64,000 bases of DNA, taken from sequence record PP925839.1, one strand, 5' to 3'. Source of the stretch: Escherichia phage PinkRuby. The stretch's first letter is position 1. The number at the start of each line of letters is the position of its first letter. The notes beneath the pieces were generated by a model that did not search any database, was not told the origin of the DNA, and saw only the letters and a program-made list of their open reading frames with translations. This document shows positions 12,821 through 17,169 of the stretch, piece by piece. A program made the translations under genes and the position numbers.

Positions 12821-13210
12821 TTAATCCAAAATATTATTAGGCATTGGTTGAACACTCGCAAGTTCTTTAAAGAACTCAGTAGAGTCAGGTAATTTAACCA
12901 TTTCCGGAGCATGCTTACTAAATTTATGTTTGCAATGACGGCATTTATATTCAAGTTCCGGTTTACGCCAGTTAATCAATTGAACTTGTTCAGTACCGCA
13001 TTCAGGACAATTAGGAACGTTTTTAGAAGCCCTTTCGCGACGTTCAACCATAACCATAATAGCATCCCAGGCTGGAGGTTTAAAATCTAAATCATCACAA
13101 CCATGAATCTTTCCGCGCATTTCCAGATCGTCTTCTTCACCAGCCATAATAATTTTAATTAGACTGGAATTACTTGAAGCTGCAATATCTTCTAATAGAC
13201 GCTTTTTCAT
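12821..13210 (-). CDS. Zn-ribbon protein
   Basis: 129 aa with CPECGTEQ...CRHCKHKF (CxxC-x17-CxxC). Confidence 0.6.
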
Positions 13211-14136
13211 TTCAATACCTCAATAGCATTACGTAAACCATTTGCTTTTGCATTAAGAGCTTTTAACAATTTAGCGTGTTCGGCAATCTGAGCTTCAACT
13301 TCAACTAGTCGAGATTTGAGGTATTCACGTTCTTCGCTCAAGTTATCAATCTTTTCTACTTTAGGCTCTTTTACAACTGTCTTATATGTATTAGGGTTCT
13401 TCAGTTTAATTAAAATGCGTGAACTGTATAACATTGAACCATTATCTTCGGTTTCGTCATACATTTCTACTACGTCCATGATTTTTAACATCATGCGGAG
13501 TTTATAAGATAACGAACGAATAGTTTTGTTGTGCTTATTAATTTCTCTAGAGTTCATGGTGCCGAGATTACGTGAGTAATAATAAGGAACCTGGATATTA
13601 ATTAATACTGATGAACCACCTGGCTTGTGTGTTACTTCATCAGCAATAACCCAATCCTTAACATGAACTGTATTTGTACGGTCATCGCCCGCGGTAAATA
13701 GTTTGCGAGCATGCTTAAAAAGCATATTCACTTGGTCATTGAATTGACAAGCAAATTTATCAGCAAATTTAGTTTCAGGAATGGTAGATAACCAATCAGC
13801 CAAATGGGTCTTTTTAACATCGTTAACAATAGTAAATTCAACCAAATCAGTTATAGATGTCTCAGATTTAATAAAGCTCGGCTTCATAAAGTTTTTAATG
13901 TTATCGCGAGCTACAGTAGAAGATAACATACGAGAACGTTTAAACCATTGAAGCAAATTGCCCAACGAATGAGAATAAGCGTTTTGAGTATCTTTACAGA
14001 TATGATTTTCCTGGCCAACATATTGAAGGAAATCACGAAGAATATTATTGATTACTGCTCTGTGTCCGATCTGATAATTACGGTGTTTAGTAATAAGACT
14101 GTCAAAATAATCAATATAATGTTTACGAGTTTTCAT
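13207..14136 (-). CDS. Coiled-coil-tailed protein, paralog family member 1
   Basis: 309 aa; N-terminus MKTRKHYIDYF; internal IMDVV motif; C-terminal heptad coiled coil; 4-nt overlap with downstream ORF. Confidence 0.7.
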   Translation of the reverse strand: MKTRKHYIDYFDSLITKHRNYQIGHRAVINNILRDFLQYVGQENHICKDTQNAYSHSLGNLLQWFKRSRMLSSTVARDNIKNFMKPSFIKSETSITDLVEFTIVNDVKKTHLADWLSTIPETKFADKFACQFNDQVNMLFKHARKLFTAGDDRTNTVHVKDWVIADEVTHKPGGSSVLINIQVPYYYSRNLGTMNSREINKHNKTIRSLSYKLRMMLKIMDVVEMYDETEDNGSMLYSSRILIKLKNPNTYKTVVKEPKVEKIDNLSEEREYLKSRLVEVEAQIAEHAKLLKALNAKANGLRNAIEVLK

Positions 14137-14188
14137 ATTCTTCTCACTTGGTTAATGGTTTATACTCCGAGCCATCCTTGGCTTTAAA

Positions 14189-15190
14189 TTACTTAATTAA
14201 CTGTAAAGCTTGTTCAAGACGATCAAGACGATTAACAGATTCTTCCCAAATCCTTTTAGCCTGCTCATATTCTTTCTGCGCTTTATTAGAAATTTCTAGA
14301 ACTTCTTTATAAGCTTTTTCTAGTGCAATAACTTCTGGACGAATTTCTACCGGTTCAGGTGAATCGTCAAGACATTCCATTAGTTCTTCAAGGGTAGTTT
14401 CTTCTTTAGGAGTATTCACAATTTCATCACATTTTTGTTGGTAAATTTCTTTATCAGTCGATGAGCACGCACACTTTACTTCACGAAGGCTAATTATAAT
14501 TTTATATCCTTCCCAACCACACATATTTTTGAAAGGATATGTATGAATACTTTTTACAGTTTCCATACAGCCCAAAACCGCCTCTAATTGATAAGTTATA
14601 GTGCTAGCAATTGAGAAAAATTTATTAATATTCTTTTGGTTAGCGTTTGGTGTAAAAAATCCATAATTCACAAAAATAGCTACTTTATTTTCATCAAGCT
14701 CATATTCTTTTACGATAATCATATCAGAAGCCAAAGGATGAATTTGACGATAATCGCCATAACATAATTTAGAAGCTGATTTTAGAATTTGTCCTTTGAA
14801 AAGTCTGAAATTACTAATCCAACGACGAGTAAAAATATTCTCAGGGTATTCTTTATTATTAAGATGATAAGAATTAACATCACCGAACCAATTATATCCT
14901 ACTACATCTTTAGTTCGTTTAATTTCTTTCCCAAATTTACTAAGAATATCTCTGTTGACTAAGTATGAAAGAAGACGAGACCCTTTAAAGGTTTTCTTAA
15001 TGTCATCTTTATCTGTACGACTAGAAATTTCACGAACTTCATGAATAAATTTGCCGGAAGAAACAATACTTGCATCAGTATTATTGAGCCATTGATTGAT
15101 AATAGAAATCACACTATTCTGACTAGACATAGGTTTAACTTTATCATCAATAACGCTGTTGAACGATTTAATATATTCGTTGCGAGTCAT
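14189..15190 (-). CDS. Coiled-coil-tailed protein, paralog family member 2
   Basis: Start set at ATG 15190 (MTRNEYIKSF) with SD GAGGAG, because the early promoter -10 overlaps the track start at 15220; C-terminal coiled coil. Confidence 0.7.
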   Translation of the reverse strand: MTRNEYIKSFNSVIDDKVKPMSSQNSVISIINQWLNNTDASIVSSGKFIHEVREISSRTDKDDIKKTFKGSRLLSYLVNRDILSKFGKEIKRTKDVVGYNWFGDVNSYHLNNKEYPENIFTRRWISNFRLFKGQILKSASKLCYGDYRQIHPLASDMIIVKEYELDENKVAIFVNYGFFTPNANQKNINKFFSIASTITYQLEAVLGCMETVKSIHTYPFKNMCGWEGYKIIISLREVKCACSSTDKEIYQQKCDEIVNTPKEETTLEELMECLDDSPEPVEIRPEVIALEKAYKEVLEISNKAQKEYEQAKRIWEESVNRLDRLEQALQLIK

Positions 15191-15218
15191 ATTAATCTCC
15201 TCAGTAGAAAGTAAGAAC

Positions 15219-15248
15219 ATTATACCACATCCTTGTGGCGAAGTAAAC
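15219..15248 (-). promoter_or_regulatory. T4-type early promoter
   Basis: Minus strand GTTTAC, 18-nt spacer, TGGTATAAT extended -10. Confidence 0.6.
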
Positions 15249-16252
15249 TAGTTTAGTGCATTTAGTGCGTTGTTCAATTTAGAACGTTGCTTCGTGAGAT
15301 TTTTTACTTTTTCTTGAGCTTTTTCTAGCATCTTTTCAGCTTCTAACACTTCATTAGTTGCTTTAACGAGTTCATCATCTACTGCCTTGATAGACTTCTC
15401 AATCGCATCCGCGTGCCATTTTTCAACAGGTTTAAGACTCGGATTTTCAACAGGAAGAAAATTCACTTTATTGAATTTCCATGCATCATTATTACCTGAA
15501 CTATACATCCAAAATTTAGGATCGTTTGATGAGTAATTAGTTTGGGGTTCAGGTTTTTTCTCTTGTGTAACTTCGTCCTTTCTCAAAAAATCATATTTAA
15601 ATGAAACGATCATATCAAGTTCATATGTTGTCGTATCTAATTTAAATCGTTCGAAATGCTGCGAAATCTTAGACTGAACAGCAGAAACAACATCCATATA
15701 CTTAAATGCTTCTGTCAGCTGTGATTTAAGACATTCACAAATTGAAAGAGAATTTTTAGTACTAGGTTTAAAGCTAATTCGTGCAGTTCTATTATTTTCT
15801 TTTAATGGTCTTACTTCCATCTGAAGAGTATAACCATCAAATTTCAGATTCTTTAAGTTAATATCAGAGCCCTTTAATCGACTAGCAGTAGACAAAATTT
15901 GCTTTAATTGTTTACGAAATAGAGCAATAAATCTCCATTCAATACGATAATGATTTGGATTAAAAAATCCTGTTGATAAATCAACCTTACTCTGACCAAC
16001 GCCTTGAACAAACAGAGGATTTTTATAATCAATAGTTTTACAGAAATCGGTGAGCTGCTCACGAGCAGTCATTTGTGTAATATATCCCGCTTTACTAAAA
16101 TGACGTAACCATTCACTGCTATTCATATACTTAAAGTGAATATCACGATTAACTTTATCAGGGTCTAAATTATTTTGGCACAAAAATGTCATAACATTAC
16201 GGGTATAGCTGGCATTACGAACCATATCTTCAATTTGAGAACGAGTTTTCAT
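15248..16252 (-). CDS. Coiled-coil-tailed protein, paralog family member 3
   Basis: 334 aa; MKTRSQIEDM N-terminus and YMDVV motif shared with member 1; C-terminal coiled coil. Confidence 0.7.
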   Translation of the reverse strand: MKTRSQIEDMVRNASYTRNVMTFLCQNNLDPDKVNRDIHFKYMNSSEWLRHFSKAGYITQMTAREQLTDFCKTIDYKNPLFVQGVGQSKVDLSTGFFNPNHYRIEWRFIALFRKQLKQILSTASRLKGSDINLKNLKFDGYTLQMEVRPLKENNRTARISFKPSTKNSLSICECLKSQLTEAFKYMDVVSAVQSKISQHFERFKLDTTTYELDMIVSFKYDFLRKDEVTQEKKPEPQTNYSSNDPKFWMYSSGNNDAWKFNKVNFLPVENPSLKPVEKWHADAIEKSIKAVDDELVKATNEVLEAEKMLEKAQEKVKNLTKQRSKLNNALNALN

Positions 16253-16260
16253 AGTGTTCC

Positions 16261-17169
16261 TTAAGATTTAAGTAAATCAACAATTTTAATTAATTTTTCA
16301 CGCTCAGATTTAGCTTTACTACTCAATCCAGATAGTCTGAAAATTTCATCGTCATACTGTTGAATAGAAATATTCAGCTCTTCAATTTGCTTATTAAAAT
16401 AATCAATTTGCTCAGAATGTTTTTCATTACTGCGAACTGGTACAGGTTTTGTAGGCAATTTAGTTAAACTGGATTCATCCGGGCGATAAATTAAAATACA
16501 ACTTGAACCAATCGGGCATTTAGCACCAGACACATATTCTAATGTTCCGGCTTCTTTTAAAACTTCAAAAGCTAAACAGAGATGATGCCCCATATTAACA
16601 TAATCTGTAGAGCGAGCTCTGACGTAATAATCATCGCCGCGAATACTAAATTTAAAGCATTTAAGGTCTTCTGTATTATTGGTCTTAAAAATCATTTGTT
16701 TATCTAGACCTTTAGCTAATCGAGCGCCTAATGCTAATAATCGTCGTTGATTTTCCCACAAATCTGCGATCATTTGGTCAAATGATAATTTCGGCATTAG
16801 TCGACCGTAAAGATCATAGCCTTTATTATAATTGCGAAGAATTTCACTTGCATTAATACGAGACAATGCTCCAATTTTATTAAGGGCTTTCATAATGCGA
16901 TTAGATAAACCCATTCCAGACCCGTTTGTTCGCTGTAAATGTTTTTCTAATCCAAATCCAATATCAACTTTAAACTTATCTAAAATTTCTGCATGAACAT
17001 CTCTGTCAATAACATTCAAATCCAAAGTTGGGTTAAATCTATGAAAAAATTTATCTGGCTCTCCACGACGAAGTACAGTCCATTCATTCAATTTTTTATT
17101 AACTAAAGATTTAATTACTGCATTGACACTATTAATTACTACTGACATATTTTCCTCACTCAATTTCAA
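16261..17169 (-). CDS. Coiled-coil-tailed protein, paralog family member 4
   Basis: 302 aa; same architecture (globular N-domain plus C-terminal heptad coiled coil). Confidence 0.65.
   Translation of the reverse strand: MKLSEENMSVVINSVNAVIKSLVNKKLNEWTVLRRGEPDKFFHRFNPTLDLNVIDRDVHAEILDKFKVDIGFGLEKHLQRTNGSGMGLSNRIMKALNKIGALSRINASEILRNYNKGYDLYGRLMPKLSFDQMIADLWENQRRLLALGARLAKGLDKQMIFKTNNTEDLKCFKFSIRGDDYYVRARSTDYVNMGHHLCLAFEVLKEAGTLEYVSGAKCPIGSSCILIYRPDESSLTKLPTKPVPVRSNEKHSEQIDYFNKQIEELNISIQQYDDEIFRLSGLSSKAKSEREKLIKIVDLLKS

Follow-up and report, generated by a model that had tools for sequence, protein, structure and literature searches.

The nrdC.3 to nrdC.6 array of Escherichia phage PinkRuby: four probable ancient paralogs with a C-terminal heptad helix and a candidate role in counter-defence

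The genes nrdC.3, nrdC.4, nrdC.5 and nrdC.6 of T4-like phages were analysed in Escherichia phage PinkRuby (sequence record PP925839.1), on one strand of a stretch of 64,000 nucleotides (nt), hereafter the window. At the DNA level, the 3963-bp array stretch matches 656 phage records, with Shigella phage ESh33 as the top match (98.7%). Against T4T the value is 89.5%, and the T4T features beneath the match are nrdC.3, nrdC.4, nrdC.5 and nrdC.6, from which the window is assigned to a Tequatrovirus genome. The four-gene array is thus the nrdC.3-nrdC.4-nrdC.5-nrdC.6 array of a T4-like phage, and the correspondence to T4 nrdC.x open reading frames (ORFs) proposed in an earlier, sequence-only reading of this DNA was borne out. 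That reading had also placed four consecutive co-directional genes of about 300-340 amino acids (aa) at 13207-17169; four minus-strand ORFs are present, with the end of the array at 17148 and, after start correction, the following sizes:

13207..14136, minus strand: nrdC.3, 309 aa, defined by its ORF, the T4T annotation and phrog_1435; the member nearest to NrdC.4
14189..15190, minus strand: nrdC.4, 333 aa, the same size as in T4, with its ATG (15190) after GAGGAG; phrog_1435
15248..16252, minus strand: nrdC.5, 334 aa, DUF7235 and phrog_2351; orthologue of T4 NrdC.5
16261..17148, minus strand: nrdC.6, 295 aa, with its ATG (17148) after GAGG, 7 nt beyond the nrdC.7 stop; phrog_2257
15219..15247, minus strand: T4-type early promoter-like site, GTTTACT-17 nt-TGgTATAAT, scoring 10/12 with an extended -10 in a consensus scan

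Concerning the two corrected starts, the ATG at 15220 from which the nrdC.4 ORF opens falls within the -10 element of the promoter-like site and the start was set to 15190, while the TTG at 17169 falls within nrdC.7 and the nrdC.6 start was set to the ATG at 17148. All the genes of the region lie on the minus strand, and the thioredoxin gene nrdC (12312-12575) adjoins. From nrdC.3 to nrdC.7, the intergenic gaps measure 52, 57, 8 and 7 nt, in line with the tight packing and the single early promoter described from the sequence. The promoter-like site, read from 15247 to 15219, lies within the 57 nt that separate nrdC.5 from nrdC.4 and is followed by GAGGAG and the nrdC.4 ATG; GTTTACT-17-TGgTATAAT agrees well with the pattern of T4 early promoters. 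Across the scanned region promoter-like sites were no commoner than in shuffles, so that the weight of this site lies only in its gap placement and its match quality. For the nrdC.4-nrdC.3 gap, the presence of a regulatory hairpin or terminator was rejected, since the gap folds no better than shuffles (z = 0.29). As for the N-termini, NrdC.3 and NrdC.5 do begin with MKTR, and NrdC.4 begins with MTRNEY. Capsid-targeting sequences are known from the T4 internal proteins, and MKTR was considered as one of these and discarded: no [LI]xE cleavage motif occurs near the N-terminus of NrdC.3, NrdC.4 or NrdC.5.

The four proteins are very probably true, very diverged ancient paralogs, and their family is confined to Straboviridae. 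By BLASTP, the only match among them is that of NrdC.3 with NrdC.4 (expectation value, E, 1.4e-8; 25% identity over 226 residues), the other five pairs having E > 0.3. Pairwise alignment, proposed earlier as the check for paralogy, was thus positive for this pair, and for the rest it was profile comparison that gave the positive result. PHROGs and Pfam hold three families: phrog_1435/PF26897 for NrdC.3 and NrdC.4, phrog_2351/DUF7235 for NrdC.5 and phrog_2257/PF26899 for NrdC.6. NrdC.3 and NrdC.4 match phrog_1435 with E of 8e-116 and 3e-165, respectively, and each other with E 4.6e-12 by hhalign, and PF26897 is recorded on 64 of the 64 NrdC.4 homologues found (39-97% identity). NrdC.5 matches DUF7235 (PF23882) with E 1.1e-116 and 390 bits (cut-off 30), its residues 1-334 lying on profile positions 1-307. 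NrdC.6 matches phrog_2257 with E 4e-152, and PF26899 is recorded on all its homologues, which are up to 98% identical.

The NrdC.5 family is shallow, nearly all its matches having at least 81% identity, and the first profile comparisons made with this alignment were suggestive only (reversed-profile controls, P > 0.15). By tblastn, Dhakavirus-type phages were found to carry NrdC.5 homologues of 21-28% identity in the corresponding genomic position, and the profile was extended with ten such syntenic divergent homologues. NrdC.4 matches the extended profile with a local P of 3.2e-5 and a global P of 1.6e-7, over 284 colinear columns running end to end. This alignment puts LEAVLGCMETV on LTEAFKYMDVV in the same column and also superposes a second motif, FRLFKGQILKSASKL / FRKQLKQILSTASRL. 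The MDVV/METV motif pointed out in the sequence-only reading is therefore real; its NrdC.6 equivalent, LAFEVLKEAG, is divergent.

As for NrdC.6, its direct profile comparisons with NrdC.5 and NrdC.4 were not significant on their own (P 0.03-0.09), while a merged NrdC.3, NrdC.4 and NrdC.5 profile matched it with a global P of 1.8e-6 (reversed control, 0.043). When 1.84 billion representatives were searched exhaustively by HMMER for matches to the NrdC.6 profile, only 14 proteins were obtained. Two of these bridge the families: P0236 (337 aa) and P0238 (345 aa) match the NrdC.6 profile at about 1e-14 and the NrdC.5 profile at 2e-8 and 2e-7, respectively, and the latter match takes in N-domain positions 33-188. 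With the bridging sequences kept, leave-one-family-out hidden Markov models (HMMs) recovered NrdC.4 at 1.5e-9, NrdC.5 at 6.9e-16 and NrdC.6 at 5e-17 among the 168 ORFs of the window, and no further ORF among these 168 matched the family HMMs. NrdC.8, the C-terminus of which looks alike by eye, was tried as a fifth member and ruled out at E 3.5.

All four proteins end in a helix with a heptad pattern. The last 49 residues of each were placed in one unbroken register with 14 a/d positions and compared with 5000 shuffles of the same segment:

13210..13356, minus strand: NrdC.3 heptad helix, residues 261-309, hydrophobic residues at 12 of 14 a/d positions, matched by 1 of 5000 shuffles
14192..14338, minus strand: NrdC.4 heptad helix, residues 285-333, 12 of 14, 2 of 5000; a single 48-residue helix (285-332) in the predicted model
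15251..15397, minus strand: NrdC.5 heptad helix, residues 286-334 with the pattern starting from about 278, 13 of 14, 0 of 5000
16264..16410, minus strand: NrdC.6 heptad helix, residues 247-295, briefly interrupted at SGLSS, 12 of 14, 1 of 5000; helices 242-271 and 277-294 in the predicted model

The C-terminal coiled coils that had been read from the sequence are thus supported in all four proteins, and the top-scoring 49-residue heptad window of each lies at the C-terminus or at most three residues away from it. An ending of the QRxKLxxALxxLK type is common to the four proteins and to distant relatives. In three of the four families (NrdC.3, NrdC.4 and NrdC.6), distant orthologues are most conserved in the helix, with 72, 60 and 65% identity, respectively, vs. 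23-53% elsewhere, the N-terminal helical bundle of NrdC.3 (83%) being an exception to that range. This contrast between a variable globular part and a conserved helix fits the idea of different targets on one shared module, and the proteins would probably oligomerise through the C-terminal helix.

AlphaFold2 monomer models cover NrdC.4 and NrdC.6. Each of the four proteins starts with a basic helical bundle, which is followed by an alpha/beta sandwich, a flexible linker of low confidence and a C-terminal amphipathic helix of about 49 residues. The NrdC.4 model (predicted local distance difference test, pLDDT, 83; predicted template modelling score 0.67) comprises helices in 3-84, three strands, helices in 119-148, a beta-beta-alpha-beta-beta unit in 158-235, the low-confidence linker and the helix 285-332. 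The elements of the NrdC.6 model (pLDDT 79), including the beta-beta-alpha-beta-beta unit, follow in the same order. The lengths in the three-helix stretch are 12-11-4 in NrdC.4 vs. 10-11-4 in NrdC.6, and in the family alignment the secondary structures of the two models agree at 0.71, vs. 0.38-0.60 for shifted controls. With Foldseek against BFVD, the NrdC.4 model finds NrdC.6 of phage JS10 (E 1.9e-5), an NrdC.3-type protein (4e-8) and proteins of 280-374 aa in T4-like phages of Enterobacter, Pectobacterium, Klebsiella, Serratia, Erwinia and Acinetobacter, while the NrdC.6 model matches the same six BFVD proteins as NrdC.4, from IME523, PM2, fHyAci03, Acj61, Acj9 and Mineola. In these models, NrdC.4 and NrdC.6 share a predicted fold. 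No solved relative was found by sequence search of the PDB, and the PDB matches to designed helical repeats and to caspase-3 were set aside as noise.

It is the profile matches, the bridging proteins, the two models and the reciprocal Foldseek matches, taken together with the leave-one-out HMMs, that unite all four proteins in one family, and the paralogy claimed from the sequence stands. Compared with T4, the proteins of the window are direct orthologues of NrdC.3, NrdC.4 and NrdC.6, uncharacterised ORFs in the same order and orientation; the databases keep NrdC.3/NrdC.4 and NrdC.6 in separate families, which are joined here with NrdC.5. Many GenBank and UniProt records label NrdC.3-NrdC.6 as 'thioredoxin', a label apparently carried over from the gene name nrdC and given no support by the present comparisons. 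Nor do these comparisons support the name 'tail sheath stabilizer and completion protein' that T6 record AP018814.1 gives to the NrdC.5 orthologue.

The family locus always lies between nrdC and nrdC.10, with a copy number of one to four across genera. Four copies (6-5-4-3) are found in Tequatrovirus, three in loci of the Dhakavirus/Gaprivervirus type (6-5-4) and in Mosigvirus PhAPEC2 (6-5-3), two adjacent copies in Acinetobacter phage Acj61, and one each in Kanagawavirus IME523 and Mosugukvirus PM2. Phage Acj61 also carries a tandem pair of about 372 aa, p076 and p077 (10204-11322 and 9028-10146 of the Acj61 stretch), annotated by the depositor as copies of each other; these sit elsewhere in its genome and, as far as checked, are unrelated to the nrdC.3-6 locus.

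Individual members are also found broken or merged. In phage vB_EcoM_G8 (5971-7003 of the G8 stretch), an intact NrdC.4 has given way to two ORFs, of 193 and 158 aa, and BFVD entry A0A2Z5WKJ2, from phage T2, holds NrdC.4 as a 155-aa fragment, which suggests a loss of NrdC.4 function in some Tequatroviruses. In a 299-aa protein of a 167-kb contig (P0057), the middle of NrdC.5 continues into the C-terminal half of NrdC.3, the junction being a short FN..VN similarity, which implies a deletion that took nrdC.4 and parts of its neighbours. Judging from the split NrdC.4 and this natural NrdC.5-NrdC.3 deletion hybrid, the genes are dispensable. In Shigella phage Sf25, an NrdC.6 homologue of 378 aa (P0123) is about 80 residues longer, with 97% identity over the shared part; the extra length may come from fusion with the upstream gene or from a mis-called start.

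The divergence from T4 is uneven. The amino-acid identity is 59% for NrdC.3, 89% for NrdC.4, 90% for NrdC.5 (over 325 residues) and 97% for NrdC.6. Close by, nrdC, nrdC.1 and nrdC.10 hardly differ from their T4 counterparts. NrdC.3 is closer to gp082 of Mosigvirus PhAPEC2 (76%) than to T4 NrdC.3. Since its synonymous divergence from T4 (dS 0.8-1.6) is saturated, and given this 76% identity to the Mosigvirus copy, the difference looks like an exchange of old alleles and not like rapid recent adaptive change. The sequence-only reading had also suggested an expansion under selection; understood as positive selection, this did not hold, as the ratio of non-synonymous to synonymous divergence (dN/dS), computed pairwise against T4, ranges from 0.08 to 0.28 among the genes and stays below 1 for each domain, and no positive selection was detected in any gene or domain by this comparison.

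Concerning function, one member has a published role. A T4 deletion mutant failed to plate on ECOR17 or on MG1655 with ECOR17 dsr1, and expression of nrdC.5 alone from a plasmid restored its plating on Dsr1 cells (Srikant, Guegler and Laub, eLife 2022, PMC9391042). Dsr1 is a defence protein with a SIR2 domain and NADase activity. According to a 2026 paper (PMC13581612), the sensor of Dsr1 is common to Avs7, and its trigger is the major capsid protein. The window protein at 15248-16252 is the syntenic orthologue of T4 NrdC.5, located between nrdC.6 and nrdC.4 in a similar early expression context; the anti-Dsr1 effect is known for the T4 allele. About 1.3 kb from the array, at 11596-11916 on the minus strand, lies an orthologue (98% identical to T4) of gp49.2, an inhibitor of the OLD defence system (2026 paper, PMC13096335). 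The array is therefore part of a stretch with two published counter-defence genes, gp49.2 and nrdC.5. 'Host-takeover factors', as the proteins had first been called, was right in so far as T4 NrdC.5 acts against Dsr1; the function is more specific, namely counter-defence. In the literature searched, no paper was found on the mechanism of NrdC.5, under its newer names (DUF7235, anti-Dsr1), or linking NrdC.5 to NrdC.3, NrdC.4 and NrdC.6.

The array is best read as a set of non-enzymatic counter-defence binders, each with a variable head on a conserved oligomerising helix, to which we give a probability of roughly 60%. Binding as the mechanism is favoured by the genetics of NrdC.5, by the absence of catalytic residues, by the pattern of conservation and by the genomic context. 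The family alignment has no conserved catalytic-type residue, its conserved positions being L, G, A and K/R only. No enzyme family was matched in Pfam, NCBIfam or PADLOC, where DUF7235 was the only informative family, and among the PADLOC defence models only a 12.5-bit coiled-coil match to BrxC was obtained. DNA mimicry was rejected, the proteins being basic, not acidic (net charge of the globular domains +2 to +8 and isoelectric point 8.6-10.1 in all four). According to the proposed mechanism, NrdC.3-NrdC.6 would be made early in infection and would inhibit host immune proteins by binding, without enzymatic activity; the target would be recognised by the variable globular part, and the conserved C-terminal helix would make the inhibitor oligomeric, suited to multi-subunit defence proteins. 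NrdC.5 would then bind Dsr1 directly, and NrdC.3, NrdC.4 and NrdC.6 would block other defence proteins. That at least one paralog beyond NrdC.5 is a counter-defence factor we consider a little short of an even chance. Doubtful is the extension to an inhibitor battery built on a single scaffold, in which each diverged head would blind a different immune sensor, the tail-terminator-like sandwich would be a decoy surface, the helix would set a common oligomeric state, and genera would tune their host range by gaining, losing or swapping copies; candidate targets would be different members of the Dsr1/Avs7 sensor family, which is widespread, or other receptors recognising phage structural proteins.

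Several points weigh against the counter-defence reading or the family on which it is built. Experimental support within the family comes from NrdC.5, in its T4 allele, only. At the resolution used, dN/dS values below 1 give no indication of an arms race still in progress. By sequence, NrdC.6 is tied least firmly to the family, its membership relying on transitive and structural evidence; leave-one-out recovery is weaker when the bridging sequences are removed, and NrdC.6 is then not found. Nor can the C-terminal module be used as a proof of homology by itself, as it is inseparable from generic coiled-coil similarity: another coiled-coil ORF (57413-58876), presumably fibritin, scores E 4.9e-4 in one of the leave-out tests. 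Finally, the basic helical and alpha/beta domains of all four proteins, and a weak match of NrdC.3 residues 30-86 (about 13879-14049) to the integrase/XerD N-terminal SAM-like domain, point elsewhere, as does early expression: the proteins could serve host takeover or regulation by binding nucleic acid, be it DNA or RNA of the host or of the phage, with an indirect effect of NrdC.5 on Dsr1. We regard this as improbable. The match, obtained with each of two independent libraries, concerns one paralog only and is far under the curated cut-offs (Pfam E 0.087 and 13.6 bits vs. 22.3; NCBIfam XerD models E 0.0013 and 0.014, 18 bits vs. 279), no tyrosine recombinase N-terminal SAM-like domain passing the curated thresholds of Pfam or NCBIfam in any of the proteins, and Dsr1 is reportedly triggered by a capsid protein, not by nucleic acid (PMC13581612).

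About as improbable is the possibility that the four helices assemble one hetero-oligomeric complex with a single function. The helices are alike in length, in a heptad register that runs to the C-terminus and in their ending, and the genes are co-directional and tightly packed. However, the locus has a single member in IME523 and PM2 and two, three or four elsewhere, so that no fixed stoichiometric set is conserved, and this variation in copy number makes a single complex unlikely; NrdC.4 is split in phage G8, and plasmid-borne nrdC.5 alone restored plating (PMC9391042, the text of which is silent on the paralogs retained by the mutant phage).

Less probable still is that the alpha/beta domain is a relative or a mimic of a tail terminator, the proteins being virion or assembly components, or decoys for sensors of structural proteins. 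The resemblance to the tail terminator fold (lambda gpU and relatives) exists at the fold level only: RNA polymerase alpha/Rpb11 and nitroreductases fall in the same score range, and the likeness may be that of a common two-layer sandwich. Neither a sequence-profile match to any tail family (Pfam, PHROGs) nor the late structural gene context of gpU was found; NrdC.3-6 are early, not late, with extra helical and coiled-coil parts, and are encoded in a dispensable early cluster that follows an early-type promoter. Moreover, the trigger reported for Dsr1 is the major capsid protein and not a tail protein.

That the shared architecture is a coincidence, with unrelated ORFans all ending in coiled coils, is barely credible: the blank BLASTP result for five of the six pairs and the three separate families of Pfam and PHROGs speak for it, but chance resemblance is largely excluded by the colinear profile-profile matches with clean reversed-profile controls, the bridging sequences and HMM recoveries, the common order of secondary-structure elements in the NrdC.4 and NrdC.6 models, the reciprocal Foldseek matches to one common protein set, and the position between nrdC and nrdC.10 kept in distant genera.

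As non-enzymatic counter-defence binders, the proteins of the array can be set beside known systems. DSAD1, from an SPbeta-group phage, inhibits DSR2 by direct binding (PMC10973363, PMC11087589). The likeness is one of outline, a phage protein neutralising a SIR2-domain NADase defence protein; the target is DSR2 and not Dsr1, the phage group is another one, and for NrdC.5 direct binding is presumed. The T4 'anti-defence island' genes (gp49.2, TifA, Dmd and AdfA) are likewise small, early, non-essential and located in variable regions, each of them neutralising one host defence. The anti-OLD gp49.2 lies near the array, and TifA, Dmd and AdfA elsewhere in T4. In contrast to these genes, which are single-copy and unrelated in sequence, the array consists of one scaffold copied up to four times.

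Some neighbouring features also differ from T4. No match to T4 gene 49.3 was found in the window by tblastn; its place is occupied by two small minus-strand ORFs of 69 and 71 aa (11927-12136 and 12100-12315), and the segment 11927-12315 looks like a local gene replacement adjoining nrdC. Next to the array, nrdC.2 (12821-13210, minus strand) codes for 129 aa vs. 104 aa in T4, with 81% identity over 97 residues, and is far more diverged from T4 than nrdC and nrdC.1, both of which are 100% identical. A second good early-promoter-like site (18175-18203, minus strand; TTTACA-17-TGnTATTAT) is located directly upstream of nrdC.8, in the gap after nrdC.9.

The genes studied here are long-annotated T4 ORFs, one of them with a published role, and do not constitute a new kind of system. 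The new element is modest: four ORFs that databases divide among three unrelated families belong together in one, with a coiled-coil tail that is conserved, which gives grounds to merge these families and to drop the 'thioredoxin' mislabel, and NrdC.3, NrdC.4 and NrdC.6 become candidate counter-defence genes at a locus with a genus-dependent copy number. T4 is the best-studied phage, yet only a minority of its nrdC.x genes have been given a function. If the ancestry and the build shared with NrdC.5 are as proposed, three ORFans would turn into testable counter-defence candidates, and the array would be a clear case of a phage widening its anti-immunity repertoire by copying one inhibitor scaffold. 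With one to four copies across Straboviridae genera, the locus would offer a natural system for the evolution of inhibitor specificity and the limits of host range, which bear on the choice of therapeutic T4-like phages.

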